Part shown: positions 733 through 22,300 of the stretch, in pieces
How positions within the stretch are numbered: position 1 is the first letter of the stretch
Layout: the number at the start of each line of letters is the position of its first letter
DNA from: Candidatus Electronema halotolerans
GTDB taxonomy: Bacteria; Desulfobacterota; Desulfobulbia; Desulfobulbales; Desulfobulbaceae
Direction: 5' to 3'
Length of the DNA stretch: 32,000 nt
Assembly (NCBI GenBank): GCA_942493095.1
Contig: OW818675.1
Location: forward strand, 3,090,001 to 3,122,000
The notes under the pieces: model-generated
Seen by the model: the letters and a program-made list of their open reading frames with translations, nothing else
Told to the model about the DNA's origin: nothing
Databases searched by the model: none
Program-made: the position numbers and the translations under genes

Positions 733-828
733 CTATACCCTTCCTTTCTTCAGAAGTCTTTTTCACAGTTCAGGAAACACATTCTTCTACCTGAGAATGC
801 TGATGCCGCACCAGTGCTGACAATTCCA

Positions 829-857
829 TTGACACAGCCGTAATCGTGTCTTAATCT
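829..857 (+). promoter_or_regulatory. Candidate sigma70-type promoter for the hydrolase gene
   Basis: TTGACA (829-834), 17 nt, TAATCT (852-857) in the divergent ugd/hydrolase intergenic region, about 115 nt upstream of the ATG at 974. This is a sequence match only. Confidence 0.3.
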
Positions 858-973
858 GCCCGAATAGAGAAGCAGCCTTCCTCTTGTTTTCCCGTTTCAC
901 AAGAGAATCAGCATGAGCACGAGACAATGGCGGTCTCAAGCGCAGCAGGCCGCAATACGCAATATAATTGATT

Positions 974-1804: not shown

Positions 1805-1830
1805 GAAACTGCGCAGGCTGCTGACCTGAG

Positions 1831-2517: not shown

Positions 2518-2535
2518 AGCTGCATCTCTAAAAAA

Positions 2536-3942: not shown

Positions 3943-3954
3943 GATGGCTTGTAA

Positions 3955-4554
3955 TTATTCAGTAATGCTCTTGAACTGCTTGAAGAGAATCAATCCGCCC
4001 CATGCCAGGGCCGCGCACATCAGGAGAACAGCAAGCAGATGGCTGGCTTGGGCAATGGCCGTGTCCTGCTGGCGCAGGCCGGTCTCGGTGAGCAGGTATT
4101 CCCAGTCATGAAAGCCATAAGGTGAACTTTGGCCCGTGTTGCCGCCGAGCAGGGGCAGGACTCCGGCTCGCGCATCATTGATGTACGGGGCAATGTCAGC
4201 AAAATTCTGGCCAAACCACCAGAAGCAGACGCTTGCGCCAAAAGCATCGCGGGTGCGGAGCAGGAGCGTGATCAGGCAGATCAGCGGCATGAGCAGCTGG
4301 CCCAAGGTGCCGCCCAGCGAGTGCAGAAAGCTGCCGCCAATTTGAAAAAAAACATGGCCTGCCTCGTGAAAGGGCAGGTTCACCAGATGGAAAAATCGTT
4401 CGCCGAGATAGCCAGTATAGCCTGCCTTTTTTCCAGCAGCGGCAATGGAGATTGTGCAGACCACGAGACAGAGCAGAAGCAGGCTGCGGGCGGCGGCGGC
4501 CAGCCAAGAGGTTTCTAGCTGATCAGGAAAAAGGATCTCCAGCAATTTGTTCAT
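3955..4554 (-). CDS. Hypothetical integral membrane protein with an HEXXH motif (HEAGH); possible zinc metalloprotease
   Basis: 199 aa with several hydrophobic segments and the motif PFHEAGHVFF. It lies 12-15 nt from its neighbours on both sides in the greA-manC gene string. I did not recognise the family. Confidence 0.65.
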   Translation of the reverse strand: MNKLLEILFPDQLETSWLAAAARSLLLLCLVVCTISIAAAGKKAGYTGYLGERFFHLVNLPFHEAGHVFFQIGGSFLHSLGGTLGQLLMPLICLITLLLRTRDAFGASVCFWWFGQNFADIAPYINDARAGVLPLLGGNTGQSSPYGFHDWEYLLTETGLRQQDTAIAQASHLLAVLLMCAALAWGGLILFKQFKSITE

Positions 4555-4569
4555 GGAATCAGGAGCATT

Positions 4570-5055
4570 TCAGCAGAAGGTTCCGGCCTGAATGTCGATC
4601 ACCTCGAATTCGCGCAGACCGCCCGGTGTTTTGACCTGCACCTCATCGCCCACCGCCTTGCCCAGAATGGAGCGTCCCAGCGGCGCAAGCACTGAGATGG
4701 AGCCGCTTTTCACATCCGCCTCTTCCGGCCCCAAGAGCTGGTAGGTGACTTCCTCATCCGTGTCCATGTCCATCAGTTTGATAACTGTGCCGAAAACAGC
4801 CCGCGCTGTGCTGACTTTGGTGCAGTCAATCACTTCAGCGCGACTCGTTTTATCTTTCAGCTCCAGTATCCGGCCCTCAATCAGGCTCTGCCGCTCCTTG
4901 GCCGCATGATACTCGGCATTCTCGCTCAGATCGCCATGAGCGCGGGCTGTCTCAATCGCCTTGACCACGTCGGGCCGTTCTGTTTTTTCCAGCCGCTCCA
5001 GTTCTTTTTTGAGCTGGAGGAATCCTTTCTTGGACATGGGGATGCGTTCAACCAT
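4570..5055 (-). CDS. greA: Transcription elongation factor GreA
   Basis: 161 aa. MVERIPMSKKGFLQLKKELERL...AHGDLSENAEYHAAKERQ aligns by eye with the conserved GreA N-terminal coiled coil (IPMT..G...L..EL, GDLxENAEYHAAK). Confidence 0.95.
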   Translation of the reverse strand: MVERIPMSKKGFLQLKKELERLEKTERPDVVKAIETARAHGDLSENAEYHAAKERQSLIEGRILELKDKTSRAEVIDCTKVSTARAVFGTVIKLMDMDTDEEVTYQLLGPEEADVKSGSISVLAPLGRSILGKAVGDEVQVKTPGGLREFEVIDIQAGTFC

Positions 5056-5088
5056 GATGCGGCACTCTTTCTCGTTCGTTTGTTGCGG

Positions 5089-5130
5089 AAGAAAATAAAA
5101 TTCCTGTCGTCGGAAAGGCGGCGGCAGGAA
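5089..5130 (-). terminator. Hairpin plus U-tract between the aminotransferase gene and greA (intrinsic terminator or greA-leader attenuator)
   Basis: The minus-strand RNA is UUCCUGCCGCCG-CCUUUC-CGACGACAGGAA followed by UUUUAUUUUCUU. Ten of 12 stem positions pair, with two C.A mismatches. The U-tract ends 33 nt before the greA ATG. Confidence 0.4.
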
Positions 5131-5151
5131 AACTGTCTTGTTTAATCAGGT

Positions 5152-6339
5152 TCAGGAGCGGTAAAAGTCTGCAATGACTTGGACGGCATATTCCTGCTGT
5201 GCCCGGCTCAGTTCAGGATAGATGGGCAGGGCCAAGGAATCTTGAGCCGCCTGCTCGGCTATCGGCAGGGACAGCCCGTTGCAGCCATGCTGTTTCATGC
5301 AGTCCTGCTTGTGCAGGCAAACCGGGTAATAGACCTCGCAGCCCACGCCCTGCTCGTGCATAAGCTGGCGCAGGGCATCACGGCGCGGGGCACGGATGAC
5401 AAACTGGTTGTAAATATGGTGATGATGCGCAGCCGCTTCCGGGCTGGCCGCATGAACCGCCTTGGGCAAAATCACTGGATTGTCTGTCAGACCGGCTTGG
5501 GCGAACAGCTCGTGATAGGCTTGACTGTTGGCTTGCCGCTGCCGGTGCCATTGCTCCAGATGGGGCAGCTTGACGCTGAGAACCGCAGCCTGAATGGGAT
5601 CAAGGCGGAAGTTGCCGCCAATTTTGGCGTGATAGTATTTCGGCTTGGCTCCGTGATTGCGATAGCAGCGCAGGGTCTCAGCAAAGCTGCTGTCCGAGGT
5701 GACAATCATGCCGCCGTCGCCAAGACAGCCAAGATTCTTTGACGGAAAAAAGGAGAAACAGCCTGCCAGCCCCATTGCCCCAGCCCTGCGCCAGACCGTG
5801 CTGCCGTCCTGCGCCAGCATGGGATATTCCGCGCCGATTGCCTGGGCTGCATCCTCAATCACCGGGATGTTATATTGCTCGGCCAAAGCCATGATCCGGC
5901 TCATGTTCGCGCACTGACCAAAGAGATGCACCGGAATAATAGCTTTGATCTTCCGGCCCTGCTTGGCATCTTCTGCCAGAATCTCAGCCATCTGCTCAGG
6001 GTCAATATTGAAAGTGTCCGCTTCAATATCCGCAAAGACCGGCTGCGCCCCAACTCGAAGAATGGCCCCGACCGTGGCAAAAAAGCTGTAAGGCGTGGTC
6101 AGCACCTGATCGCCCGGCCCGATTTCTAAAGCCATCAAGGCGGCCAGCAGGGCATCCGTGCCGCTCGACACGCCAATGCCCGCGCCCGCGCTGCAATAGG
6201 CTGCGACTTCCTCTTCCAGCTTCACGACCTTGGGGCCGAGAATGTAGCGGGTCGAGTCGATAACTTCAGTGACAGCGTGGAGGATTTCCTCACGAAGGGC
6301 CGCAATCTGCGGGTGCAGGTCTAACAGGGGAACGTTCAT
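5152..6339 (-). CDS. DegT/DnrJ/EryC1/StrS-family PLP-dependent sugar aminotransferase
   Basis: 395 aa. MNVPLLDLHPQ..., GVSSGTDALLAALMAL, IIPVHLFGQ and FSFFPSKNLG (PLP lysine context) are typical of this family. Confidence 0.9.
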   Translation of the reverse strand: MNVPLLDLHPQIAALREEILHAVTEVIDSTRYILGPKVVKLEEEVAAYCSAGAGIGVSSGTDALLAALMALEIGPGDQVLTTPYSFFATVGAILRVGAQPVFADIEADTFNIDPEQMAEILAEDAKQGRKIKAIIPVHLFGQCANMSRIMALAEQYNIPVIEDAAQAIGAEYPMLAQDGSTVWRRAGAMGLAGCFSFFPSKNLGCLGDGGMIVTSDSSFAETLRCYRNHGAKPKYYHAKIGGNFRLDPIQAAVLSVKLPHLEQWHRQRQANSQAYHELFAQAGLTDNPVILPKAVHAASPEAAAHHHHIYNQFVIRAPRRDALRQLMHEQGVGCEVYYPVCLHKQDCMKQHGCNGLSLPIAEQAAQDSLALPIYPELSRAQQEYAVQVIADFYRS

Positions 6340-6360
6340 TGTCGGCTTATGATAGAAGGT

Positions 6361-7362
6361 TCAGTGGAACTCTGCGCTGACTGAATCAGCCTGCCCGGCG
6401 GCAAGAAAGTCGCGGGCATCAGGCAGTTCTTTTTCAAATATGTCTTTCAGCTTTTTCAAGAGATTGGCCTCAATTTGCCGGACCCGCTCCCGCGAAATCT
6501 GAAAGCGGTCAGCAATGGTCTGGAGAGTCTCCGGCTCATCACTGAGCAGGCGGCTGTTGAGTATCAGCAGCTCTTTTTCATTGAGCATCCCTTCGATCTC
6601 GTTGAGAAGATTGAAGACCCGGTCGCGAATTTCATGACCGGCCACAATATCCTCAACCGCCGGGCCGCTGGCTGGATAGAAATTTTTTTGCTCGTCCTCT
6701 GAATCGCCCAGCACCGGAGCTTCCAAGGAGACTTCCCAGCTGTCCATACGCTGGCCCATCTCCACCACTTCGCTTTCCTTGACCTGAAGACGCTGGGCCA
6801 GCAGCTTGACATCCGGCTTGAAGCCTTGCGCCTCCAACAGCTTTTTTTCCTTATTCAGGCTGAAAAAGAGCCGCCGCTGGTTCTGGGTGGTGCCAATCTT
6901 CACCAGCCGCCAGTTGTCCATGATGAACTTGAGGATATAGGCCCGAATCCAATAGGCAGCATAATACGAGAACTTGACCCCCCGGTAGGGATCAAATTTT
7001 TTGGTCGCCTGCACCAGCCCGACATTGCCTTCCTGGACCAAGTCCATGAAGTTCTGCATCCAGTATTTCTGGAAATCCATGGCCACCTTGACCACCAGCC
7101 GCAGGTTGGAGGAAACCAAACGGTAGGCCGCCTCCGGGTCGCCGGTTTCGCGGAAGCGGATGGACAGCTCCTCGGTCTCCTCGCGGGAAAGCAGCTCGTA
7201 CTGGCTGATCTCCTGCAAATAGCGGTGCAGGGCCGGGTTGCTGACCGCAGGGAGCTGCTCGTCCGCAGGGGACGCAACCAGCATCACAGGGTGGTAAACC
7301 TGCTTCTCCTTCAGTTCTGCCTCAACAATGTTGTTTTCCTTGTTTTCGCTCATAAACGGCAC
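6361..7362 (-). CDS. rpoH: RNA polymerase sigma-70-family factor, RpoH (sigma-32)-like
   Basis: 333 aa. Region 2 reads LVQEGNVGLVQATKKFDPYRGVKFSYYAAYWIRAYI. It is followed by an RpoH-box-like QNQRRLFFSLNKEK (E. coli: QRKLFFNLRK) and region 4 QISRERVRQIE. The track start at 7362 is GTG. An ATG three codons downstream (7353) is equally possible. Confidence 0.85.
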   Translation of the reverse strand: MPFMSENKENNIVEAELKEKQVYHPVMLVASPADEQLPAVSNPALHRYLQEISQYELLSREETEELSIRFRETGDPEAAYRLVSSNLRLVVKVAMDFQKYWMQNFMDLVQEGNVGLVQATKKFDPYRGVKFSYYAAYWIRAYILKFIMDNWRLVKIGTTQNQRRLFFSLNKEKKLLEAQGFKPDVKLLAQRLQVKESEVVEMGQRMDSWEVSLEAPVLGDSEDEQKNFYPASGPAVEDIVAGHEIRDRVFNLLNEIEGMLNEKELLILNSRLLSDEPETLQTIADRFQISRERVRQIEANLLKKLKDIFEKELPDARDFLAAGQADSVSAEFH

Positions 7363-7457
7363 CGTGTTCGGCAGGAAAGCCTGATGGAGCCAGCTTACCG
7401 CATTCTGCTGAAAAAATCACGCAATACAAAGGAAAAACCTGAGCCGCACTGTATTGC

Positions 7458-7486
7458 TTGAAAAAGTTTACAATTCATTATATTTA
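7458..7486 (+). promoter_or_regulatory. Candidate sigma70-type promoter for lepA
   Basis: TTGAAA (7458-7463), 17 nt, TATTTA (7481-7486) in an AT-rich stretch about 60 nt upstream of the lepA ATG. This is a sequence match only. Confidence 0.3.
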
Positions 7487-7545
7487 TACAACCCTGTTCT
7501 TCAGGGATTCAAAGTAAACCTTTTTCAACCAACATACAAGCAAAT

Positions 7546-9339
7546 ATGAAAAATATACGGAATTTCAGCGTCATTGCCCATATCGACCACGGCAAGTCAA
7601 CCTTGTCCGACCGGATGATTCAGCTCTGCGGCCTGGTCACAGCACGGGAGTTCAAGGACCAGCTCTTGGACAACATGGACATTGAACGCGAGCGCGGCAT
7701 CACCATCAAGAGCCAGACCATCTGCATGCCCTACAAGGCCAAGGACGGCCAGCAGTATTACCTGAATTTGGTTGACACGCCCGGCCACGTGGATTTCAGC
7801 TACGAGGTCTCCCGTGCTTTAGCAGCCTGCGAGGGCGCGCTGCTGCTGGTGGATGCGGCCCAAGGCGTGGAGGCCCAGACCTTGGCCAACCTCTACTTGG
7901 CGATGGAGAACGACTTGGAGATCATCCCGGTGATCAACAAGATCGACCTGCCTGCGGCTGAACCGGAAAAGGTGGCTGAAGAGATCAGTCATGACTTGGG
8001 CTTGGGATCGGACACCATCCAGCTCTGCTCGGCTAAGACGGGCAAAGGTGTTGAGGACATACTTGAGGCTATCGTCCAGCACCTGCCGCCGCCCAAAGGC
8101 GACCCCAATGCGCCGCTGGAAGCTCTGATTTTTGATGCCAACTATGATGCCTACCGGGGCACGGTCATCTCGGTGCGGATTGTCAACGGCACCATCCGCA
8201 CTGGCGACCTGATCACCTTTATGCACAATAAGTCCGAGTACCGCGTCGAGGAATTGGGCCAGTACCTGCTCGTTCGCACCCCGCGTGAGAGCCTGAGCGC
8301 AGGTCAGATCGGCTACATCATTGCGGGCGTGAAAACCGTTGCTGACACCAAGCCTGGCGACACCATCACCCATAAAGCCGCACCCTGCCCAAAGGCACTG
8401 CCCGGCTTCAAGGAGGCCCAGCAGGTGGTCTTCTCCTCAATATATCCCATTTCTGCGGACGACTACGAGGACTTAGCCACGGCTTTGGAAAAGCTCCAGC
8501 TCAACGATGCGGCCCTGACCTTTCAGAAGGACTCATCCGCCGCACTTGGCTTCGGCTTCCGCTGCGGCTTCCTTGGCCTGCTCCACTTGGAAGTAGTGCA
8601 GGAGCGGATTGAGCGCGAGTTTGACATCTCGATCATTCTGACCGTGCCTTCTGTGCGCTATGCCGTGTATCTCCAGAACGGCGTGGAGAAGATGATCGAC
8701 AACCCTTCGTTTTTTCCTGATCCCGGCTCGATTGAGCGGATTGAGGAGCCGTACATCAAGGCCACGATTCTCATCCCTGACCGCTACATGGGCACCTTGA
8801 TGACCCTCTGCATGGAACGGCGCGGCGAGAATATCCACTACCATTATCCCACACCGGGCCGAATTGAGATGACTTGCGAGCTGCCGCTGGCCGAGGTGAT
8901 TTATGACTTCTACGACAAGCTCAAGTCCATCACTCAAGGCTATGGTTCCTTTGATTATGAACTGCTGGATTACCGGCCCAGTGATCTGGTCAAGCTGGAT
9001 ATTTTGGTCAATGGCGAACGGGTGGATGCGCTCTCTCAGCTCACCCATCGGCAGCGTTCTCGCGAGCGCGGCCTCAAGGCGTGCGAAAGCCTCAAGGACG
9101 AGATTCCCCGGCAGATGTTCAAGATTGCTATTCAGGCGGCCATTGGCGGCAACGTCATTGCCCGGACAAACATCTCGGCCATGCGCAAGGATGTCACGGC
9201 CAAATGCTATGGCGGCGACATCAGCCGCAAGCGCAAGTTGTTGGAAAAGCAGAAGGCGGGTAAGAAGCGGATGAAGACTGTCGGCAATGTCGATATTCCG
9301 CAGTCGGCGTTTCTGTCGGTGTTGAAGTCAGAGCAGTAA
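7546..9339 (+). CDS. lepA: Translation elongation factor 4 (LepA)
   Basis: 597 aa. It contains NFSVIAHIDHGKSTLSDR (G1), DTPGHVDF (G3), NKIDL (G4) and the LepA-specific C-terminal domain (...CYGGDISRKRKLLEKQKAGKKRMK). Confidence 0.97.
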   Translation: MKNIRNFSVIAHIDHGKSTLSDRMIQLCGLVTAREFKDQLLDNMDIERERGITIKSQTICMPYKAKDGQQYYLNLVDTPGHVDFSYEVSRALAACEGALLLVDAAQGVEAQTLANLYLAMENDLEIIPVINKIDLPAAEPEKVAEEISHDLGLGSDTIQLCSAKTGKGVEDILEAIVQHLPPPKGDPNAPLEALIFDANYDAYRGTVISVRIVNGTIRTGDLITFMHNKSEYRVEELGQYLLVRTPRESLSAGQIGYIIAGVKTVADTKPGDTITHKAAPCPKALPGFKEAQQVVFSSIYPISADDYEDLATALEKLQLNDAALTFQKDSSAALGFGFRCGFLGLLHLEVVQERIEREFDISIILTVPSVRYAVYLQNGVEKMIDNPSFFPDPGSIERIEEPYIKATILIPDRYMGTLMTLCMERRGENIHYHYPTPGRIEMTCELPLAEVIYDFYDKLKSITQGYGSFDYELLDYRPSDLVKLDILVNGERVDALSQLTHRQRSRERGLKACESLKDEIPRQMFKIAIQAAIGGNVIARTNISAMRKDVTAKCYGGDISRKRKLLEKQKAGKKRMKTVGNVDIPQSAFLSVLKSEQ

Positions 9340-9506
9340 TATGAACAGGCCGTTTTTCGCCGGGCGTATGGCAGATATTGCCCGGCTCATGGCTTTGGCA
9401 GGGTAGGCTTTTGTTTGGAAAGGATGCGTACAGGAAAAGGGATTTTTTTGCAGGAGTATGGTAAGAATGCGCTAAACAATGCTCGCCGTTTTCGCTCACA
9501 TCCGCA

Positions 9507-10244
9507 ATGGACAAACTGCCTGACAATCCGATGAACGCCGAAAGAAAAATCCTTATTTTCTCTGCTAATCCCCAAGATACCAGCCGCCTGCGCCTTGACA
9601 AAGAGCTTCGGGAAATCCAAGACAGATTGAGGCGGACTAAATATGGCAGTCAGTTCATCTTCAAATCAGCCCCTGCCGTCAGGATTCACGATCTTCAGCA
9701 GGAGCTGCTGGAACACGAACCCGACATTGTTCATTTCTGCGGCCACGGCGAAGAGGAAGGGATATTGGTTGAGGATGAACAGGGCAAGGCGGTCTTAGTT
9801 CCCTCTGAGGCCCTTGCCTCATTGTTCGCCCTGTGCGCAGAGCACGTTGCCTGTGTGCTCCTGAACTCCTGTCATTCTCATGTCCAAGCCGAGGCCATCT
9901 CGCAGCATATTCCGTATGTCATCGGGATGAAAAAAGCCGTTGGTGACGATGCGGCGGTGGAGTTTGCCGCTGGTTTTTACAATGCCTTGGGCTTTGGCAA
10001 GAGCATTGAGCAGGCTTTTGCCTTCGGCAAGAACGCTGTACAGCTCTACGATCTTCCCGATCATCTGACTCCCGTCCTGGTGCAACGACGGGCAGCGGTC
10101 AAGGAGCCGGAAAAGATCATTCTGCTTGCTGCCAATCCGTTGAATGAACCGCAGAACTGGAATCCCTATATCGAGATCAGCAGTGTCTGGTTAGTTTTTT
10201 GCAAGCGAATCTGTGAACAACAGACTGTCCGCTTGACAGCGTGA
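9507..10244 (+). pseudogene. Fragment 1 of an IS-split STAND NTPase gene: the CHAT (caspase-like) effector domain
   Basis: The fragment begins KILIFSANPQDTSRLRLDKELREI. It carries a His-Cys dyad context, DIVHFCGHG (His codon 9744-9746) and CVLLNSCHS (Cys codon 9870-9872). Authentic host sequence ends at 10177. The last 22 codons (SSVWLVFCKR...) are read-through into the left end of the IS4-family element. Confidence 0.85.
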
Positions 10245-10261
10245 CCGTGAGGTTTCATTAT
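10233..10261 (+). promoter_or_regulatory. Candidate transposase promoter inside the IS4-family element
   Basis: TTGACA (10233-10238), 17 nt, CATTAT (10256-10261). It lies 35 nt upstream of the GTG start, which is itself preceded by AGGGAG (10283-10288). Confidence 0.35.
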
Positions 10262-10295
10262 CTTCCTGTAATCAACAATAACAGGGAGATGCCTA

Positions 10296-11444
10296 GTGAA
10301 GCCGCTTGTTGTGAAGAAAAAAATCACGTCCCGAACGTATGATGAGTTCTGTCTGCCTCTGCGCGATATTTTGCGCAGCACTCCTGTGTTGAAGTCACGG
10401 GGAGACCGGCCTTTGCAAATGACGTTCGAGCATCAGCTCAATGCCCTGATCTGGTTTCATTTGCAGGAGCATGATTCGGCGCGGCATCTTGTTTCCGATC
10501 TCAACAGGAATGACTTTGCGAAGGAATTCATTGCGCCGGATGGAGGCATCAGCCGGAGCAGTTTTTCAGAAGCTGTTAATAATCGGGGACTTGAGCAGCT
10601 TCAGCATGTTTTCAATGAACTCTCAAAGCAGGCCCGCGCAACGCTTCCGGCTGACTTTCAGGCACTCGGCGAGCTTGTCGCAATCGACGGCTCGCTGATT
10701 GATACGGTTCTTTCCATGCACTGGGCTGATTACAGGAAAAAATCCAAGAAAGCCAAGGGTCATTTCGGGTTCGATATCAACCGGGGCATTCCGACCGGAT
10801 TCCATTTGACTGAAGGCAAGGCGGGAGAGCGTCCTTTTGTCGAGCAAATTCTCGCCGCAGGGCAGACAGGAGTGATGGACAGGGGGTATCAATCTCATAT
10901 TCTGTTCGATTCGCTTCAAAAAGCGGGAAAAAATTTTGTCTGCCGCATCAAAGCCTGCACAATAAAGAGTATTATCAAAGAAAATTGCGTCAAACCGGGC
11001 AGCAATGTCTTTCAAGATTCATCGGCGCATCTCGGCACGGCAAAAAATCGGACCGAGTTGCCGGTTCGGGTCATCGGGTATCTGGTTGAAGGAGTAAAAT
11101 ATTATGTCGCAACGAACAGGTTTGATCTGACAGCGGAACAGGTTGCGGAAATTTATAAGCTGCGCTGGAATATCGAAACGTTTTTCAATTGGTGGAAACA
11201 GCATCTGCATGTTTATCATCTGATTGCCCGAAGCAGATACGGTCTCACTGTTCAGATGCTCGGCGGATTGATCACATACCTGTTAATGGCAATGTATTGC
11301 CGGAAAAACTTCAATGAACAAGTTTCTGTTCAAAATATCAGACTGATACGGTCAAATATTCAGAATGAATTAATGGCGGCTGGACGAAATAACAGCGGAA
11401 CTTACTCCACGACATCCAGCGTAAAATTTTATGCAAAAACCTAA
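10296..11444 (+). CDS. IS4-family DDE transposase
   Basis: 382 aa. The GTG start sits 7 nt after the SD AGGGAG. The catalytic contexts are VAIDGSLI, VMDRGY and the IS4 signature Y(2)R(3)E(6)K in YKLRWNIETFFNWWK. The stop codon lies inside the right inverted repeat. Confidence 0.9.
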   Translation: MKPLVVKKKITSRTYDEFCLPLRDILRSTPVLKSRGDRPLQMTFEHQLNALIWFHLQEHDSARHLVSDLNRNDFAKEFIAPDGGISRSSFSEAVNNRGLEQLQHVFNELSKQARATLPADFQALGELVAIDGSLIDTVLSMHWADYRKKSKKAKGHFGFDINRGIPTGFHLTEGKAGERPFVEQILAAGQTGVMDRGYQSHILFDSLQKAGKNFVCRIKACTIKSIIKENCVKPGSNVFQDSSAHLGTAKNRTELPVRVIGYLVEGVKYYVATNRFDLTAEQVAEIYKLRWNIETFFNWWKQHLHVYHLIARSRYGLTVQMLGGLITYLLMAMYCRKNFNEQVSVQNIRLIRSNIQNELMAAGRNNSGTYSTTSSVKFYAKT

Positions 11445-11549
11445 CCGGACACTACTGATATCGAGATCATCAAGAAGAAGATTTCCTGCCCGATTGAGCA
11501 GCGCAGCCTGAGCATTGAGAACCTCAATAAGTTCCAAGACGATGCCTAT

Positions 11550-12998
11550 TTGCTGATATTGAGCAAGGTCAGTAAAAATAAACTGGTGATCGAGAACGAA
11601 TATCTCTGCAAAGACACGATCAGTTTTAAAGAACTTGACGACAACATCGGCAGCAGGCAGCTTGCCGGACTGTTCCTCTTTATCGATCAATTGCCGGAAG
11701 ACACGTTGCTTGATGAACTGACTTTGCCTGCCTTTTTGCTGCCGGTGGAGAATGAAAAGCAGCTCCGTAATGTGCTGTATCAGCTTTTCACCAAGAAGAA
11801 TATAGACTGCGACGACAAGAGCCGGATATTGAACAAGGCTGCTTTCCAGCTCTGCGCCCTGAATGGGAAACGTGATTTTGAGCACAAAAAGACCGATCTT
11901 CCTGAAAGCATCGACCGCCAGAAGCTAAAGGGCTTTGTGGGACGCAGCGATGACTTGGAGCATATCTGCCGCAAGCTCATGGAGCTGGACGAAGGCGAGC
12001 TGCTCACTGTCAAGGGCGCGGGCGGCATTGGCAAGACGCACACAGTGAAGAAGATTGCCGCTGCCTTGGCTGATCGGCACCTGTTCAGAGGCGGCATCCA
12101 CTTTATCGACTGCGAGCCGGTCACAGACAGCAAGCAGTTTCAGTTCAAGGCCGCTGCGGTCTTTGGACTGGAGCTGGCCGAAGACCTGTGGCAGCATCTC
12201 CGCGACCATCACGACGGCAAAGACCGCCTGATCATTTTCGACAACTTTGAACCGCTGCTCTATCTTGAGGAGCAGGACGAGATCAAAAAGATTCTCAGCA
12301 GGATTGCCAACTACGCCAAAGTGCTGGTCACGTCCAGAGAGCTGCTGGGCTTGGAATGCGAGCAAGTTCACCAGATGCGCCGCCTGACCACGGACGAGGC
12401 AGCCGAGCTGTTCACTGCTAAATTCAATGTGCCGGAGCAGGAACAGGAGTTGCTGCGCCAAGATATTCTCAGCAGGCAGTTGGACAACAATCCGCAGGCC
12501 ATCACGCTGATCACAGGTCAGCTACCCAAGGGCAAGAGCTTGGAGACGCTGCGGAAGGAGCTGGAAGAGAACCTGTTCGGCAAGGTCTGCGCCGATGAGC
12601 TGGAAGTCTTTGCCAGCGGCCCGGACAGCAATATTGAACGGAGGGACTCCATTTATGCCTCCATCCTCTATTCCTACCGCCGTTTGAATGCGGAGGAGAA
12701 AATGACCTTTGAGCTGCTTTCTTTATTCCCGGACGGCATTGAGCTGGAGAAGTTCAAGCGGTTGACCAGCACAGCGGAAAAGAAAGACAAACTGCCTCTA
12801 TCCCTGATCACAGACAGGCTGCTCAAGGCTTTGGAGGACAAGTCCATGCTGGAGAACAACAGCGGCCAGCTCAAACTCCAGTCGATGGTTGGCAGATTTG
12901 CCCAAGCCATGCTGAAGAAGCGGGAAGACTTTGCCCGTAAGCGATCACAGGGTACCGCTCAGACCCAGCTTAAATCCGGCATCTGTCCTCTGAAATAG
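11550..12998 (+). pseudogene. Fragment 2 of the IS-split STAND NTPase gene: a degenerate CHAT-like module plus the NB-ARC-type P-loop NTPase
   Basis: Walker A is GAGGIGKT (12015-12038) and Walker B is LIIFDNFE (12228-12251). It also has VLVTSR (the NB-ARC TTR/RNBS-B-like motif), RRLTTDEAAELF (ARC1-like) and NPQAITLITGQL (GLPL-like). The host frame is already open from 11468, directly after the duplication copy. Host sequence ends at 12936, and the last 20 codons read into the IS66 left end. Confidence 0.85.
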
Positions 12999-14422
12999 CA
13001 GCGCATGGCCTCGGTGAGCACCTCGAAAGTGGATTTTCCCCGAAGCAGGCATGTCTGCCGGAGGGAAAGGATTCGTTCAACCCAGCGGTTTCCCTTGTCG
13101 CTGTCAGTGCCCTGACTCCGTTTGCGCCACAGCACGCCGAAGCGGAGCATCCGTTCCGCTGGATTATTTGTCGGCTCTACGCCTTCTTCGAGCAAGAAAG
13201 TGAACAACGCCTCCATTTCCTTGTCAATATGACGGACAAACCTCCCCGCATCACTGTCGCAATCGCGCCAGCGTAGGATAAGTCGGCAGAGCCGGGCATA
13301 AAATGCGGACCATTCACCTTTGGTCGGCGGGTCTTTCGCCATGCGGCAGAGCCGCCGCAGTTCCGCAGCGGACCATTTGCCGCAGGCAGCCAGTTCAGGG
13401 TCAGCGCGCTCCGCAAGGCCGTCTGCCCGGCGGATAAGATGCGCGAGGCAAGTCTGCCGCTTGCCGACCCATTTTTGGTACACGTTGTATCCGTCGCTGA
13501 TGAGAATACCGTTCCAAGCGCCGATCAGTTCTTCAAAGGCTTCCTTAGAGCGTTTCGGATGAATCATGAAGAACGCGGCCTGCCGGTTCGCCATAACCCA
13601 TAACCAGCGCAGCCTGCCGCCAGTTTTCCACGTTGTTTCATCAACATGTCCGATATCCCCGCTTGTGACGGCAGCCCGGACGGCCTCATAGTGCGGCGCG
13701 ACAGCCGCCGGAGCTAGGTCAATGATCTTCTGCACCGCCCCGGCGCTGATAGGAACGCCGAGCACGGAACGGATGAACTTCCGCACAGTTCCCCGGCTGC
13801 TGCCGTCCATGCCGCTCAGTTCGGCAACCAGCGCGGTGAACCGCGCCCCGAAACCGGTTCTGAATTCATCGGGAACACAGCCTCTGACGGTTTTGCCGCA
13901 GGCGGCGCATTCCCCTTTATAAAGAAGGAAATGCCTGACCTGCATCACGATTTCCGGCAGTTCAATATGCTGATGCGTATAATATGACCGTATGTTTTTG
14001 AATTTGCCGCAACCGCAGGAGCAGGCGGAAGGATACATTTTTTGCGTTTCTGTCGGCGGCATCAGCTCCTGACGATATCCACGCCGCTTTTTCCGGGGCT
14101 TCCCCGCCTGATCTCTCTGCCGTTTTTCTGTAAACGGAGAGTCGGAAGAAGGCGGCCTGTTCGAGTTCGAGGAATCTTCGCCGAGTTTCGCCTCAAGCTC
14201 TTCGACCCGTTTTCTCAGCCGCGTTACCTCAGCGATCAAAAAAGACAGCAGCTTCCGCACCGCAGGAGGTGTAGCGGCAAGGTCTTCCTCGCTTATCTCA
14301 AAATTTTCACGATGGAACGGGGCGGTCACAGCTTTCTCCTGCGGAAAAAATTACTGCTCACAATTTATCCAGTTGCGATGCCAAGCGCCAGTGTTTTTTA
14401 GAGACACCCTGTGATCAGTTAC
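12937..14422 (-). mobile_element. Complete single-ORF IS66-family insertion sequence (1486 bp)
   Basis: The ends are GTAAGCGATCACAGGGT (12937-12953) and the reverse complement of 14406-14422, GTAACTGATCACAGGGT (15 of 17 identical). A GTAAGCG terminus is typical of IS66. The element is flanked by a perfect 8-bp direct repeat, CTTTGCCC, at 12929-12936 and 14423-14430, which is the usual IS66 duplication length. It has no tnpA or tnpB accessory ORFs. Confidence 0.88.
12959..14329 (-). CDS. IS66-family transposase (TnpC-type)
   Basis: 456 aa. The GTG start sits 5 nt after AGGAGA. It has an N-terminal leucine-zipper-like helix (VTRLRKRVEELEAKL) and a zinc-finger region with CSCGCG and CAACG. The DDE contexts are GHVDETTWK, LISDGYNVY and TNNPAERMLR. 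Confidence 0.9.
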   Translation of the reverse strand: MTAPFHRENFEISEEDLAATPPAVRKLLSFLIAEVTRLRKRVEELEAKLGEDSSNSNRPPSSDSPFTEKRQRDQAGKPRKKRRGYRQELMPPTETQKMYPSACSCGCGKFKNIRSYYTHQHIELPEIVMQVRHFLLYKGECAACGKTVRGCVPDEFRTGFGARFTALVAELSGMDGSSRGTVRKFIRSVLGVPISAGAVQKIIDLAPAAVAPHYEAVRAAVTSGDIGHVDETTWKTGGRLRWLWVMANRQAAFFMIHPKRSKEAFEELIGAWNGILISDGYNVYQKWVGKRQTCLAHLIRRADGLAERADPELAACGKWSAAELRRLCRMAKDPPTKGEWSAFYARLCRLILRWRDCDSDAGRFVRHIDKEMEALFTFLLEEGVEPTNNPAERMLRFGVLWRKRSQGTDSDKGNRWVERILSLRQTCLLRGKSTFEVLTEAMRCYFRGQMPDLSWV

Positions 14423-14603
14423 CTTTGCCCAGCTTTATCACAATGCCTTTACCTACAACCGAAGGTTAGCCTTTGCGCTGGCTCAGAAACTAATAACAGA
14501 TGAGGAAAGTAAGGCCCTAGAGAACTTCAGTCGTCAACAGGGAAATTTTCTTGCTGCCATCAAGTATTGCGATCGCTTTGAGGCAGATAAGGAAGAACTG
14601 CTG

Positions 14604-15566
14604 GTGTATCTTGCTAAATTAGTAGATTTATTTACTGGCATTTGTTCGTTAGACGGATTTATCAGTAAACTTTCGAGCAAGATGCACTTGTTTCAAGACA
14701 AAGAACGGCAATCTGTCGATGTAATCCTGCTATGGGCTAAATATTACAATGGTTATTTTCTGCAATCATTTTCAGAACTTCAACGTTTGCTACCGTTGGA
14801 GCAGATTAAGTTGTTGGACAGATTTGCTCTCAAAGAAAAACTTATAGCTAAATATGCTCGTGATATTTATGAAATGGAAGGTGAGGCACTATGGGCAGCA
14901 GAATATTACGCCCAACATCATGTTCCCCTCATTCTTTATCCTGATGCACTGCTATATCTCGGTGAATACAAATCACATTTGGTAGACGTCGGTCAGAATT
15001 GTTTTTGGAGCTTTGAAGTACTGAGCAATCTTGGTCAGCGGCCCTTAGAGAGGATTGATGCCTACCTTGCTGGGCTGCATGAAAAAAATCATATTGAGCG
15101 GATGCAAACCAGCTACACCCGTGCCAAGCTGAAACCGCTGCCAAAAGAGGTTATAGAACCTCTGGTCATCGTCAATCCCTACACCAGAGGGCTGAAAGAG
15201 CTGATGCTGGCCTTTATTGAGGAAGATGCGGAAAAGGCGGATGAACTCTATCAAGATGCGGCGGATCATCTCTGGCATATCAGGTACTATCATGTGGAGT
15301 CGCTCTATTTCTACGCCAAGTTTCTCCAGCAGCAAGGGGATGCGAAGTTTGAAGATGTCCATCAGCAAGGTCTGAAGCTCTCGCAAAAGCACCATTACCG
15401 CTTTTTGCAATATCGTTTTGAGGAACTGGTGCAACCCAGCGGCCTTGCCTACGATTCACGCAACTATCCCCTTCCTGACAACAAGGATTTCAGCGAGTAC
15501 ATCAACTTCCTGATCAAACTGAACCGCCAGCGGAACGAGCATCAGAAAAAACACCGTCTTCGCTGA
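14604..15566 (+). pseudogene. Fragment 3 of the IS-split STAND NTPase gene: the alpha-helical, TPR-like C-terminal (sensor) region
   Basis: The same reading frame is open from 14431, directly after the IS66 duplication copy, through the track start at 14604 (GTG) to the stop at 15566. The sequence is helical-repeat-like (e.g. YYAKFLQQQGDAKFEDVHQQGLKLSQKHHYRFLQYRFEEL). This stretch is visibly AT-richer than its surroundings. Confidence 0.8.
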
Positions 15567-15594
15567 GAGCCGCAAGACCTGCGCAGCAAGGCAA

Positions 15595-15847
15595 CAAAGG
15601 AATGTTGTTTATCACGCAAAGGTTGTTGTTCATCAACAGAGAAGTTTTGATAGCTGCGCAAGAAGTGTTTCTTCCTGCCAAAGGATTGTTGGCGGACTCC
15701 AAAAAAATGAATGCTATCAACAAAAGGTTAATACCTATCAACAAAGAGTTATTGATAGCTGCGCAAAGAGTTTTGTTCGCTAACAGATGAGTTGCAGGAG
15801 ATATTCAACGAATGAATGCTTCTTGCAAAGGAGCGATAGGAGTTATA
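15595..15847. repeat. Array of about 12 degenerate 21-bp tandem repeats with a 105-bp (5-unit) higher-order period
   Basis: Units are anchored on CAAAG-like starts at 15595, 15617, 15637, 15659, 15679, 15700, 15721, 15742, 15764, 15784, 15806 and 15826, with spacing of 20-22 nt. An exact 15-mer, TTGATAGCTGCGCAA, occurs at 15647-15661 and 15752-15766 (offset 105). Units n and n+5 are the most similar pairs. Confidence 0.7.
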
Positions 15848-15881
15848 CAGGCTCTCCGATAATTTCCGGGGTTGTATAATT

Positions 15882-16250
15882 CTAGTCGCGGATGTTGCAT
15901 TGAATCACTTCATCCTGCCCGGCAAGATAGACATTGCTGACAAACTCCACCGCAATCAGCCGTCCGTCTTTGGTCTCAAGCGGCAGATCATTGTAGCGGA
16001 CATATCTTTTCTGCTTCAATTCAGAGAACGCGGACTTTGATGCGTCAATATCTTTGAATGCCCCGATCTCCCAAAGATTTTTCCCTAAGAAATCCTCACG
16101 GGAATACCCCAGCATTTCTATCAAAAAGGGATTCACGTCTGCAATCTTCCCGGTCTTGGCATCAAGGATCAGAATTCCGTCTCTGGCCGCTTCAAAAAGC
16201 CGCCGATAACGGATTTCTGAAGATATCATGCGTTGCTCGCTCTGTTCCAT
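15882..16250 (-). CDS. Stand-alone PAS-domain protein (probably a truncated sensor remnant)
   Basis: 122 aa. RYRRLFEAARDGILILDAKTGKIADVNPFLIEMLGYSREDFLGKNLWEI...AVEFVSNVYLAGQDEVIQCNIRD is a complete PAS fold with no output domain. It lies 53 nt downstream of the glucan synthase gene on the same strand. Confidence 0.85.
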   Translation of the reverse strand: MEQSEQRMISSEIRYRRLFEAARDGILILDAKTGKIADVNPFLIEMLGYSREDFLGKNLWEIGAFKDIDASKSAFSELKQKRYVRYNDLPLETKDGRLIAVEFVSNVYLAGQDEVIQCNIRD

Positions 16251-16303
16251 GTTGCCTTAGATGGAAGAAAGAAGAATGGATATGTGCTTTTTTGCAAACG
16301 CTG

Positions 16304-19300
16304 TCAGGCTTGAGGAGCCTGCAAGCCCATAATCACCTCGACGTGATGCTCCCGGCGGTCGTCCACAAGAGGGAGCATAGCCTGCCGCTGCTCGGTATTA
16401 TCCAGCACGATGCCATCGGCTGTCACCCGGATCGCCTGCTCCGACGTTTCATCCGCGCTCCTGATGGTGATGTGATACACCGTCTCACGATAACGGTAAT
16501 GGATTTTATAGGACTCCCAATGGTCTGGGATGCACGGTGCAATGAGGAGGTGATCCCCTTCCCGCCGCAGCCCCAGGAGTGTTTCCACGGTCAGCCGGTA
16601 CATCCAACTTGCTGCTCCGGTGTACCAGGTCCAGCCGCCTCGACCGGTGTGCGGCGGCGCCCCGTATATATCCGCGCCCATGACATACGGCTCGACCTTA
16701 TAGCGTTCGACTTCCGCAGGCCCGCTGCCGTGGTTGACAGGATTGATCATGGCGAACAGTTCCCAGGCGCGTTTCCTGTCACCCATCATGGCAAAGGCCA
16801 TCGCGGTCCAGATCGCGGCATGGGTATATTGGCCGCCGTTCTCGCGCACACCGGGCACGTAGCCTTTGATATAGCCGGGTTCAAGATCCGAGGTGTCAAA
16901 GGGCGGGGTCAGCAGCCGGATTAACTGCGCATCGCGTTGCACCAGATGTTTATCCACCGCCTTCATGGCCTGCTCGGCACGTCCGGGGTCGCCGCCGCCG
17001 GAAATGACTGCCCAGCTCTGGCTGATGGAATCAATCCGGCATTCGTCGTTGACAGACGAACCCAAGGGGGTGCCGTCATCGAAATAGGCCCGCCGATACC
17101 AGCCGCCGTCCCAAGCATTGGCCTCAATGTTGGCACGCAGCAGGGCCGCCTGTTCAGTGCAGACTTGAGCAAAGGCCGCATCGTTTCGGCTGCGTGCCAG
17201 ATCAGCAAACAGCCCAAGGTTGTCGTAGAGAAACCAGCCCAGCCAAACGCTCTCGCCCTTGCCGTCACGACCGACGAGATTCATGCCGTCGTTCCAGTCG
17301 CCGCAGCCCATCAGCGGTAATTGATGCTCACCCAGGCGCAAGCCGTGTTTGATTGCACGGACACAATGCTCATAGAGGCTGGCCTGTTCAGTCGAGCGTT
17401 GCGGATAGTCGAAATGAGCCTCTTCTTCGGGATTCAGCTCGCGACCTTCCAGAAAATGCACTGACTCGTCAAGCACCCCGGTATCGCCGGTCGCCAGCAC
17501 ATAATGACAGGTTGCATAGGGCAGCCACAGGTAGTCATCGGAAAAATGGGTGCGCACGCCCTGTCCGTCGGGTGGATGCCACCAGTGCTGCACATCACCC
17601 TGGAGGAACTGGCGTTCGGCGCAACGGATCAACTGCTCGCGGGCGAGCCACGGGGCTGCATGGACTAGGGCCATAGTGTCCTGCAATTGATCGCGGAAAC
17701 CATAGGCTCCGCCGGACTGATAATACCCGCTCCGGCCCCAGAGCCTGCTGGACAGGGTTTGATAGATCAGCCAGCCGTTGGCCAGCACGTTCAAGGCTGC
17801 ATCCGGTGTATCCACGTTCACCGCGCCCAAGGTGCGGTTCCAGTATTCCCACACTGATTCCAATGCCAGCCGGGCACCGGCTGAACCGCTAAATCGCCGG
17901 ATGAAATCCTGCGCTTCGTCGGTGTTGCGGGCCGCGCCGAAGATGAAAACAATCTCACGCTCCTGGCCTTGGGCCAGTTCGATCCGGGTCTGGATTGCTG
18001 CGCATGGATCCAAACCGGCCCCTGTCCTGCCGGACAAACGCTTGCGCCGCATAGCCGCCGGGTCGGCCAGTGTGCCGTTGCGGCCGATGAACCCTGTACG
18101 GTTTCCGCTCACCGTGCGGGCAAGCTCGCTGACCTGGACAAAGACGACCCGATCTCCACATTCGCGACCGTAAGCATTGCGGGCGAAGAGCGCCCCGCTG
18201 TGCGGATCCGTTTCGGTGACAATGTGCATCAGATTGGTGTGCCGCCATTCACCCAGCACCAGCTCCCAATAGCCGGTCAGTGATACTTGACGCGGGCGTT
18301 TTGACGTATTGCGAAGTGTTATGACCGCAAACTTCACCGGAGCGTCCATGGCAACGTAGGTGAACAGTTCCGAGGAAATACCGGCTTCCTCATGCTCGAA
18401 CACGGAGTACCCGAAGCCGTGCCGACAGACATACCCGGACCGTCCACGGGCAGGCAAGGGCATCGGCGACCAGAAGGCTCCTGTTTCCTCGTCCCGGATG
18501 TAGAACGCCTCGCCGCTGCTGTCGCAGATGGGGTCGTTGTGCCAGGCGGTCAAGCGGAATTCGTGCGCATTTTCCACCCAGGTATAGGCACTGCCGCTCT
18601 CGCTGACCACGGTGCCGATATGCGGGCTGGCAATGACATTGACCCAAGGTGCCGGCGTATTCTGATCAGGTTCAAGGGTGATGATGTATTCGTGGCCATC
18701 GGGCGTGAACCCACCGAAACCATTGTAGAAAATTCGTTCGCGGGCTGACAGCGGATGAACAGTTTCAGCTGCGGGCTGCTGCAAGGGCGCCAGATTATCC
18801 GGCATGCGCTTCAGCGACACACGGCGATTCATCTGCTCGATCAAGGTCTCGGCGGTATCGGTGAAGACAATGCGGGCGACTGTCTGAAACAACACCCGGT
18901 CTTCTTCGGAAAGCTCATCGGCGCGCCGGACAAAGACCCCTCCCGGCTTCTCGAACATCTGCGCTTCCTGACCGGCGTTGATCAGCCCCATGATCCGGTC
19001 GTGCAGAACCGCCCGGTAGCCGGAAAAATCCTCGTTCACTATCACCAAATCCGCGATCAATCCTTTCTTCCGCCAATAGGCATGGGCTTGCAGCATCTGT
19101 TTGACCAGATTGATGCGGTTTATGTCGCTGATGTGTATCAGGACAATGGGCAGATCCCCTGAAATGGCAAAGCGCCAAAGCCCGGACTGACCAAGCCGGT
19201 TGCGGGCAATGATGCCGGATGCGGCGCGGCACCGGGCATTGCTGTAAATGATTGAAGCGGCCAGGCGGCCGAAGAGTTGCGCATCAACTTCGGTTGCGCC

Positions 19301-22300
19301 CAGGTTGCGCAAGACCTCCTGACTTTGGAACCATGCCATGTCAAAGGCGCGCTCAACAAAATGCCGGTCGCAATACTTGTCAAGCAAGGCCAAGGCCGCC
19401 TCCCGCGTGTCCGCGACACCGGAGATGATCTGCACGGTCGCGGATTCGTCGGAAGACAAGGTGATGGTGCGGCGGATAGCGACGATGGGATCAAGCACCG
19501 AACCATCAGTATTTGACAACATCGACGGCCCGGTCTTCTCCATGACCACCGGGTTGGCCGGAGTTCGCCCTCGACCGATAAATCGGGCGCGGTCTGTCTC
19601 GAAAGACGGCTCGTCGGCAATCGTGCCGGGTGCTGCCAACAGGTGAAACATCCACGGCACCTGCTCTCCCGGTGTGCGGCGGCGGCGGGTGCAGAGGATC
19701 GCTTGTCGGTCGGCAAGAATTTCGGTCTGCACAAACAGATTGCTGAAAGAACGGTGGGCCAGGTCGGTATTCAACGGCGCCAGGACGACCTCTGCGTAAC
19801 TCGTCGTCTCGATATGACGGGTACGACTCGACTTATTCGTAAGCGTAACCCGACGAATTTCGACATCGTCTTCAGGTGAAACGCTGATCTCGGTGTACGC
19901 TTCAACAGCCTGATCGCAGCGCCGGTATTCAGCCCGCGCCTGCACAAAAATCGCCTCGTAATGATCAGCCTTGCGCAAAGTCGGTTGATGTGCGGTTGAC
20001 CAATAACGACCGGTGTCGCGGTCCCGCAAATAAATAAATGTTCCCCAGCAATCGGAAGTCACGTCTTCGCGCCAGCGGGTGACAGCCATATCCCGCCAGC
20101 AGCTATACCCTCCGCCGGCATTGGTCGCCATAACGTGGTACCTGCCGTTGGACAAGAGGTGAACTTCAGGTGTCGGCGTGTCCGGGTCAGTAAAGACGCG
20201 CATGATCTCACCTGCTTCAGCGGGGGAGGGATGCTCGGCGGCACTCACTTCCGCTGCATGAGGGTGCAGGGTGGATTCTTTTTTCGGCACCCGCTCCTGC
20301 AATAATAATTCCGTCGCCCGGACAAGAGGGTCGGACATAAATCGGCGCTGCATCGGCCGGTTGAGCAAGACGTGAGCAAAAGACAGCAGGCTCATTCCTT
20401 GATGATGCGCCATGAAGGTACGGACAACGGCGTGATTCTTCCCTCGCGGCACCCGGGACGGCGTGTAATCCACGGCATCGTAAAAGCCGCAGCTGCCGAG
20501 AAACCCGTTGGCTGCCAGCGTCTGCAAGTTGCGGCACGCTGCCTGCGGCATCACTGTCAGTGCCAGTGCGCTGGCGTAAGGAGCAATGACCAAGTCGTCT
20601 CCCAGCCCGCGTTTGAGGCCCAAACCGGGAACGCCGAAGGCCCTGTATTGATAGACCTGATGTATATCCCTGGCATTATAACAGGACTCGGAAATGCCCC
20701 ACGGCACAGCGCGTTGCCGACCATATTCTATCTGGCGGGACACGGCGGCCTTGCAGGCCTGCGCCAACAAGGTGTTCTCGTAACTCGGCATGATCAGTGC
20801 CGGCATGAGGTATTCAAACATCGAACCGCTCCACGAAATCAAGCTCACATCACCCCCGTGACTTGTCAGCAGGCGACCGAGTGAGAACCAATGCTTCTGC
20901 GGCACTTGGCCCTGTGAGATGAGCAGAAAACTGGTCAGCCGCGCTTCTGATGCCAGCAGGTCGTAGCAGCCCGGATCGCTCCGCCGTTCGCCCGCATCGT
21001 AACCTATGGTCAGCAGGGAGCGTGACGTATCGTAGAGAAATTCAAAGTCCATTTCCGCAAGATTGCGGCAACGATGCACCAGATCGTCGATAATGCCGAG
21101 CCGAGCCGCCGCGCCCTGACAGCACGCTCCTGCGGCTGAGGTTTCCTCGGTCGATCCGGCTGGTTCCGCCAATTCCGCCAATGTCGGGATGTTACTGAGC
21201 TGCCGCGCTGCCGGTGCAAAAAAATTCAGGTCATCCCGAAGAGCTTGCAATTGCCGGTCAAATGCCTTTGCCCAGTAATAAAGCTCTCCGTCAGTATCAA
21301 TATCCGTCGGCAGGCACGAAACCAGTTCCCCGCCAAGACGGTGCATCTCATCCAGCAGAATTTCGGCGGCAGCCAGTGTCCGGGGCTGGCCGGTGAGCGT
21401 GTATGAGCGGACTGTATCCAGCAGCACCTTGATCTTTTTTGCAAGATCAGGATATTGCGAAGAGGAAATCTGTTCAGCGAAGACCTCCAAGGTGTCCTGT
21501 AATCCAAAAAAAGCATTTAATGACAACACCGGTTGGTTTTTTAATTCGACCAATCCCGCTTGCAGGGTGACTAAGCTGCCGACCAGATTGCCGCTGTCCA
21601 CCGAAGAAATATATTGCGGACGCAGCTGTTGCAGTGTTCGCGTGTCGTACCAGTTGTAAAAATGGCCGCAATAACGCTCCAGCTTTTCCATGGTGGTCAA
21701 GGTGTTTTCGGTCAGCTGCAGGAATTCTCCGGCGGCAATGTAACCGAAATCGTATGCGGCCAGGTTGGCAAGCAAGGACATGCCGATATTCGTGGGCGAG
21801 GTCCGCGAGGCAATGGTTGGAACCGGATGTTCCTGAAAGTTGTCGGGCGGCAGCCAGTTGTCCTCTGGCCCGACAAAATCCGCAAAGAAACGCCAGGTTC
21901 GCCTGGCCGACATCCGCAGGAATGACCGTTGCTCATCGCTTAAATCCGGTGAGGGTGACAATAGCGGCCTACTGATCCACCAGCCGACCATTGGCGATGC
22001 CAGCCAGAGCAGCAGGACGGGCGCGGTGAAGAGCAGCTCTGCCGAAAGGCAGCCTGCCATCAATGCCAACGTCAAGCCTAATCCCGCCGCCAGAACCGGT
22101 GCAATCCACATCTCGATAAAAAAATCAGCCCAGGAGCGACGCGCATTGCGTCGTGCATAGGACGGCAAATGCCAGAGCAATAATCCACTTTGCGTGAACA
22201 GCATCCTCACCCCCGAACGCAGGATTGCATCTAAGCAAATCAGCGTGTCATAAGGCAAAAAAACTATGGTCAGCAAAGCAAGCACAATCGGGCGGCCTGT

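Follow-up and report, generated by a model that had tools for sequence, protein, structure and literature searches.

Among the closest described systems are the NTP-dependent conflict systems studied by Kaur, Burroughs, Iyer and Aravind, in which caspase/CHAT, SIR2 or TIR effectors are combined with STAND NTPases and repeat sensors, and which are enriched in filamentous, multicellular bacteria (PMC8195603, PMC10907252). At least 90 defence-associated STAND families were counted in a recent survey, most of them untested (PMC12803255). Here we describe a gene of similar architecture from the cable bacterium Candidatus Electronema halotolerans, found in a stretch of 32,000 nucleotides (hereafter the window; positions 3,090,001 to 3,122,000 of the forward strand of contig OW818675.1, assembly GCA_942493095.1) of a closed, single-contig genome of 3.2 Mb. 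Coordinates are those of the window unless another contig is named. By restoring the reading frame, and by comparing it with an uninterrupted allele and with full-length homologues, we show that positions 9507-15566 are a pseudogene of one 1091-residue protein, interrupted by two independent transpositions: an IS4-family insertion sequence (IS) at codon 224 and an IS66-family element at codon 714.

In silico deletion of positions 10178-11467 (the IS4-family element and one copy of its target-site duplication) and 12937-14430 (the IS66-family element and one copy of its duplication) leaves an open reading frame (ORF) of 3276 nt, equal to 1091 codons and a stop codon, with 0 internal stops. The first restored junction reads NPYIEI followed directly by IKKKISCPIEQ, and the second reads KKREDFA followed directly by QLYHNAF. 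A preliminary description of this DNA had proposed that three plus-strand ORFs (9507-10244, 11550-12998 and 14604-15566, all present in the ORF listing as described) are parts of one gene; it had foreseen both rejoined frames and both junction peptides, and the length and stop-free state of the restored frame are also as it gave them. None of the three gene pieces carries a stop, a frameshift or any other secondary lesion, and an alignment of the restored protein with seven homologues (1084-1162 residues; 62-77% identity; six with a CHAT domain and one with a caspase domain) is free of gaps at both junctions.

An allele without the insertions exists. The Logan contig L001 (SRR21856587, 3717 bp) begins at window position 9331, within the 3' end of lepA, and encodes an uninterrupted protein of 1091 residues (P0157, found in the 90% cluster of gene piece 3), of which 1048 are identical to those of the restored protein. 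At the nucleotide level the contig matches the restored sequence with 96.3% identity over 3688 columns, and gene piece 1 is 99.5% identical to its positions 1-849. It carries one ATATCGAGAT and one CTTTGCCC, both in the predicted contexts and with the same junction sequences. L001 is the IS-free allele of the same locus in a sister strain, where such an allele had been sought, and it agrees with the restored frame and the homologue alignment in making one gene of the three ORFs. Uninterrupted orthologues, also looked for in related genomes, are found in Ca. Electrothrix (P0001-P0003; 1085, 1084 and 1097 residues at 77, 76 and 75% identity), and further full-length relatives share 57-66% identity with the restored protein. 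The features of the locus are as follows.

9507..10177, plus strand: gene piece 1, codons 1-223 and 2 nt, with the CHAT protease domain (Pfam residues 13-177)
10168..10177, no strand: left target-site duplication of the IS4-family element, ATATCGAGAT, a perfect 10 bp, present as a single copy in L001 at position 838
10178..11457, plus strand: IS4-family element of 1280 bp, with transposase ORF 10296-11444 (382 aa)
11458..11467, no strand: right target-site duplication of the IS4-family element, ATATCGAGAT
11468..12936, plus strand: gene piece 2, from the last base of codon 224 to the first base of codon 714, with the caspase-fold domain and the NB-ARC NTPase
12929..12936, no strand: left target-site duplication of the IS66-family element, CTTTGCCC, a perfect 8 bp, present as a single copy in L001 at position 2309
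12937..14422, minus strand: single-ORF IS66-family element of 1486 bp, with transposase ORF 12959-14329 (456 aa; 1371 bp)
14423..14430, no strand: right target-site duplication of the IS66-family element, CTTTGCCC
14431..15566, plus strand: gene piece 3, from the second base of codon 714 through the stop codon, with the all-helical, TPR-like C-terminal (sensor) domain

The ORF of piece 1, as annotated, extends to 10244 by reading through 21 codons of the IS4-family element. In the public record of Ca. Electronema halotolerans, pieces 1 and 3 are annotated as separate coding sequences; this annotation can now be corrected, in that the two "hypothetical proteins" GCAAIG_13920 and GCAAIG_13940 are pieces 1 and 3 of one IS-disrupted STAND gene, to which the stretch between the insertions also belongs. 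Both break points lie close to module borders, codon 224 just within the middle domain of the protein and codon 714 at the start of its helical domain.

The two elements had been described as intact members of the IS4 and IS66 families with perfect duplications, an assignment with which the family models, the repeats and the empty sites in L001 agree. Both transposases are full length. The chance of a perfect repeat at one given pair of positions is about 1e-6 for 10 bp and about 1.5e-5 for 8 bp. The IS4-family element resembles its family in its DDE_Tnp_1 transposase, its terminal inverted repeats and its 10-bp duplication; the inverted repeats are imperfect, with 23 of 26 positions matching (CAGCAGTGTCTGGTTAGTTTTTTGCA and, on the other strand, CAGTAGTGTCCGGTTAGGTTTTTGCA). 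Its transposase scores 215.8 bits against NF033592 (cut-off 115), covering nearly the whole profile, and also matches DDE_Tnp_1 (PF01609, E 3.9e-24). The identical protein is filed under at least four accessions in the source genome, and a short-read contig of 1280 bp (L005) reproduces 10178-11457 with 100% identity, its two ends coinciding with the IS termini; this contig looks like a collapsed multicopy repeat. An exact look-up of the transposase on contigs returned collapsed short-read contigs only, and no genomic copies.

The IS66-family element has terminal inverted repeats (GTAAGCGATCACAGGGT and GTAACTGATCACAGGGT), its left end beginning GTAAGCG, and a TnpC-type transposase with DUF6444, zf-IS66 and DDE_Tnp_IS66 domains, which scores 234.7 bits against NF033517 (cut-off 180) over nearly the whole profile and matches PF03050 with E 6e-33. 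The tnpA and tnpB genes of canonical IS66 are absent from the 1486-bp element, which holds one 1371-bp ORF; because there is space for one gene only, the element belongs to a single-ORF subgroup and differs from the canonical three-gene IS66. We tentatively take this subgroup to be the ISBst12 group of ISfinder, which the TnpC-type DDE transposase, the GTAAGCG-type ends and the 8-bp duplication resemble. Several paralogues of the transposase with at least 90% identity are present in the source genome, both elements being multicopy there; an exact look-up of the transposase on contigs had nothing on record. A short-read contig from the same run as L005 (L013) spans window positions 14394-15962, including the IS66/gene junction, at 100% identity; since that junction occurs in an Illumina contig, it is not an artefact of long-read assembly. 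An ORF at 28207-29577, considered as a second IS66 copy as it has the same length (456 aa), encodes an ABC-transporter ATPase with no similarity to the transposase. No long repeats were found across the window, and therefore no further IS copies lie there; the remaining 29 kb hold no transposases.

Both insertions look recent, as had been supposed: neither duplication has a mismatch, neither transposase is damaged, the gene pieces carry no further lesions, and a comparison of the interrupted with the intact allele gives a ratio of nonsynonymous to synonymous divergence (dN/dS) of 0.16, at a dS of 0.13. This ratio and the lack of lesions in the pieces mean that nearly all of the divergence arose under purifying selection, before inactivation. 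The divergence from L001 is mosaic, with a dS of 0.02 in codons 1-325, 0.17-0.19 beyond, and a near-identical block at about codons 800-950, a pattern which suggests recombination between alleles. For a cable bacterium, the locus provides clean, dated instances of IS4 and IS66 elements that are active.

The restored protein had been described as a CHAT-NB-ARC-TPR protein. Profile searches place both named families above their Pfam cut-offs: CHAT (PF12770) with 43.5 bits against a cut-off of 24 at residues 13-177, and NB-ARC (PF00931) with 30.4 bits against 23.5 at residues 385-580. The PADLOC model "chat" matches with E 2.8e-16, and both "chat" and SAVED_CHAT cover residues 14-177. The predicted catalytic dyad, His80 (9744-9746, in FCGHG) and Cys122 (9870-9872, in NSCHS), is invariant in eight aligned sequences, including the Peptidase_C14 homologue. 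Invariance extends to the NTPase motifs: the Walker A motif GAGGIGKT at 12015-12038 (residues 407-414), the Walker B region LIIFDNFE (D482), TSR (R514) and NNPxA (P566, A568). The C-terminus is helical as described, its likeness to TPR being structural only: no TPR family in Pfam matched it at E <= 1, and the match to the NCBIfam model FxSxx_TPR is limited to residues 376-709, which is the NTPase part.

The structural evidence comes from an AlphaFold2 model of the orthologue P0003, built from 21 sequences, with a mean predicted local distance difference test score (pLDDT) of 81.6. Confidence is high from residue 205 on (85-95 in the NTPase part), and residues 716-1088 are all-helical with a pLDDT above 90. 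In Foldseek searches against the PDB the best matches were the STAND-TPR protein 6mfv (E 3e-13; 791 columns), Apaf-1 (3sfz, E 6e-9) and plant NLR resistosomes; Avs4 bound to portal (8dgf, E 1e-6) was also found, and the CHAT part aligned with SAVED-CHAT 8tl0 at a root-mean-square deviation of 3.3 over 188 columns with 26% identity.

The preliminary description had overlooked a separate alpha/beta domain between the CHAT domain and the NTPase (residues about 201-350; window 11468-11912). It is conserved in all relatives whatever their effector, those with SIR2 or a caspase included. A model of this domain by itself (pLDDT 87.9) is structurally closest to SAVED-CHAT (TM 0.61, E 3e-4) and the MALT1 paracaspase; in aligned sequences inspected by eye, Ser-Lys and Asp-Gln stand at the positions of the Gly-His and Cys-His of CHAT. 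We read it as a caspase-fold domain that has probably lost catalysis. It was also considered as a sequence duplicate of the CHAT domain, and this was rejected: hhalign pairs only the first 15 residues of the two (KIxLLSANPxD; probability 22%), so the likeness is structural only. From the profile matches and the predicted structure, the chain reads as a CHAT cysteine protease followed by a dyad-less caspase-fold domain, an NB-ARC-type STAND NTPase (nucleotide-binding, helical and winged-helix domains, NBD-HD-WHD) and a putative helical repeat domain, in that order.

A search with the sensor domain (the translation of 14433-15563) against 1.84 billion proteins gave 176 cluster representatives; wherever a full-length protein was listed, this domain stands at its C-terminus. 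Homologues retain the middle domain, the NTPase and the helical domain at 50-77% identity, and their N-terminus varies: the chassis of NTPase and sensor carries SIR2 (in proteins of about 1200 residues, the commonest type), Peptidase_C14, CHAT, or CHAT with SIR2. An earlier suggestion that the protein is Avs/bNACHT-like holds as a resemblance and fails as a statement of membership. PADLOC, run on the restored protein, returned beyond the domain-level "chat" match only a weak, partial match to Avs4 (22.9 bits, residues 388-515, about 128 residues of the P-loop region, at positions 196-312 of a profile of 1570 positions). The SIR2-type relatives matched the LmuA and ThsA SIR2 models and, weakly, Avs4; no Avs5 model or structure matched them. 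In a sequence profile search of the PDB no Avs chain matched; SIR2 relatives dominate its results, and the NTPase has one weak NB-ARC match (9h2l, E 0.0056). The restored protein is Avs/NLR-like by architecture and fold, and is a member of no named Avs family. We tentatively suggest, as a fairly improbable reading, a small and uncharacterised NLR-like immune family in which SIR2, caspase and CHAT killers may be swapped on a chassis made of the dyad-less caspase-fold domain, the NB-ARC NTPase and the helical sensor, a family costly enough to be knocked out repeatedly and whose CHAT version perhaps serves the sacrifice of cells at the level of the filament in cable bacteria. Its modules would be directly comparable, as the same sensor occurs with a SIR2, a caspase or a CHAT effector.

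The compact CHAT module of about 190 residues recurs elsewhere, in two or three tandem copies in P0004, P0026, P0028 and other matches. Fusions of the module to TIR, AAA-like, pentapeptide-repeat, WD40 and metallophosphatase domains are also seen, for the most part in filamentous cyanobacteria.

By analogy with Avs and NLR-type STAND proteins, we infer an anti-phage or conflict role for the intact protein, which would be an autoinhibited sensor. The trigger, which is most likely to be a phage protein, would bind to its helical C-terminus; the NB-ARC domain would then exchange nucleotide and so drive oligomerisation, and the N-terminal CHAT domains thus brought together would cleave cellular targets, leading to cell death or growth arrest. 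In the source genome, piece 1 would encode the CHAT domain with a 21-residue IS-encoded tail, severed from the NTPase. As piece 1 is cut from the NTPase, and pieces 2 and 3 are without native starts, function is predicted to be lost, and the system appears to be dead in the source genome of Ca. Electronema halotolerans.

That the pieces are instead still in use as a split system (a free CHAT protease with separate NTPase and sensor modules), possibly expressed from outward promoters borne by the IS elements, is highly improbable. The break points do lie near module borders, and all three pieces are still open, two of them (1 and 3) being annotated as coding sequences. However, the first start of piece 2 is a TTG at 11550, from which the middle domain would lose its first strand and helix, and piece 3 would start at a GTG at 14604, with the loss of 57 sensor residues; no naturally split homologue was found in the searches, in which short matches look like fragments at contig ends, and STAND activation needs covalent coupling of the sensor, the nucleotide-binding oligomerisation domain and the effector. 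Given a pseudogene, the simplest history is one in which an IS-rich genome gathered IS elements, neutrally or nearly so, in an accessory gene that it could do without. It can be contrasted with a history in which loss was positively selected: a multicellular filament might suffer a cost or autoimmunity from a CHAT-STAND protein, since one activated cell could break its electrical continuity, and IS knock-outs would then have swept through the population. Two insertions fell within one gene of 3.3 kb while the other 29 kb of the window are free of transposases, and homologues have been inactivated independently in two more genomes. One of these, Methylobacter tundripaludum SV96 (L012 5522-10679, NZ_JH109152.1), has a SIR2-type homologue with the SIR2 domain split by an IS5-family element (L012 5670-7226, ends GAGACTGTCGGATT, with a CTAG duplication at 5666-5669 and 7227-7230); excision in silico yields an ORF of 1202 residues, 57% identical to P0016 over its full length. 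The other, Ca. Electronema sp. KV (L010 8001-11274, JAPEVH010000081.1), has a CHAT-type orthologue (78% amino acid identity), on a different contig from the lepA of that genome, with a +1 frameshift at about codon 456 (an extra T in a T6 run near 9366-9371), which reflects either another, independent pseudogene or a mistake in a short-read metagenome-assembled genome (MAG).

Selection for loss nevertheless seems unlikely. The first insertion already inactivates the gene, so the second is neutral and uninformative on selection. In a sister species the closed 2.93-Mb genome holds 163 IS elements (PMC10030654, Table S3), a density of about one per 18 kb, at which chance alone would be expected to hit dispensable genes twice if the IS load of the source genome is similar. 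The intact allele persists in the sister strain under purifying selection (dN/dS 0.16), and seven loci are too few for a rate, the more so as the KV frameshift may be an assembly error. Taken whole, the reading that we prefer (an IS-split STAND pseudogene, with the sensor mechanism proposed above, young insertions and neutral accumulation of IS elements) is very probably correct. Several points weigh against it. An anti-phage role is proposed for a protein outside the named defence families, PADLOC giving a domain-level "chat" match and the weak, partial Avs4 match; among the neighbourhoods examined there is no obvious defence island, except for the PIN and HepT/MNT genes at the lepA site of Electronema sp. 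KV; the Walker B motif has D-N instead of the usual D-D/E, though this is invariant in the family; and the CHAT part of the model is of low confidence (pLDDT about 50-75). The IS count is that of the sister species and not of the source genome. Three of the seven family loci examined are inactivated (by IS4 and IS66, by IS5 and by a frameshift), a suggestive figure which could mean that loss is favoured, from a small sample with one case in a short-read MAG. On the preferred reading the locus opens no new question; IS-mediated decay of accessory defence-type genes is common, and that seen here would be ordinary gene decay.

The genomic context supports the gene as accessory, inserted after lepA, as far as its left side is concerned. 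The upstream block recurs in two relatives, with nucleotide identities of 90% and 81%, and synteny stops exactly at the lepA stop codon; the orthologues of E. aestuarii, E. gigas AU1_5 and Electronema sp. KV stand alone in differing neighbourhoods. The preliminary description had likewise placed an accessory insert after lepA. In 1-kb segments the G+C content is 0.54-0.61 across 1-9000 and 16001-25000 but drops to 0.44-0.47 in the 3' third of the gene (14001-16500), and lows of 0.46-0.50 at 10001-12000 partly cover the IS4-family element. In Electronema sp. KV (L008 10687-15069) a PIN-domain gene, three uncharacterised ORFs and a HepT/MNT toxin-antitoxin pair follow lepA in place of the STAND gene; the 3' flank of lepA looks like a hotspot for accessory, conflict-type genes.

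A second variable spot lies in the window at about 733/800-1835, where an ORF at 968-1804 (PF10118, predicted metal-dependent hydrolase) is found; this segment is missing from the syntenic block of Electronema sp. KV (L008), and a PDDEXK_4 gene takes its place in L007. Beyond the STAND gene, an ORF of 2903 residues on the minus strand (16304-25015) has GH94 supersandwich, GH94 catalytic and glucoamylase domains, by which it resembles a putative cyclic beta-1,2-glucan synthase. A 122-residue PAS-domain ORF (15882-16250, minus strand) lies just past the 3' end of this ORF, before the STAND gene.

Compared with known systems, the restored protein is like the NTP-dependent conflict systems by architecture only, the same CHAT module recurring in multidomain proteins of cyanobacteria; at the locus, no death-like or effector-associated adaptor domain and no diversity-generating retroelement were found. 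With the CHAT proteases of defence systems (SAVED-CHAT of CBASS/type III CRISPR, 8tl0; TPR-CHAT/Csx29 of Craspase) it shares a compact CHAT domain with a His/Cys dyad. It differs from them in that a fused STAND NTPase would activate the protease, rather than a cyclic-nucleotide SAVED sensor or a CRISPR effector complex, and in that no substrate gene adjoins it. The likeness to Avs (Avs4, 8dgf; the SIR2-bearing Avs5) lies in a single chain that runs from an N-terminal effector through a STAND NTPase to a helical, TPR-like sensor at the C-terminus, in the swapping of effectors (SIR2, caspase, CHAT) on a conserved NTPase and sensor, and in a stand-alone accessory gene. Unlike Avs, the restored protein has an NTPase nearer to NB-ARC/AP-ATPase and an additional dyad-less caspase-fold domain between the effector and the NTPase. 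Finally, it resembles Apaf-1, CED-4 and the plant NLRs in its NB-ARC Pfam match, in its predicted NBD-HD-WHD fold and in a logic by which nucleotide-driven oligomerisation would lead to a caspase-type protease; it differs from them in being bacterial, in having its protease fused rather than recruited through a CARD, and in having a helical sensor in place of WD40 or LRR repeats.

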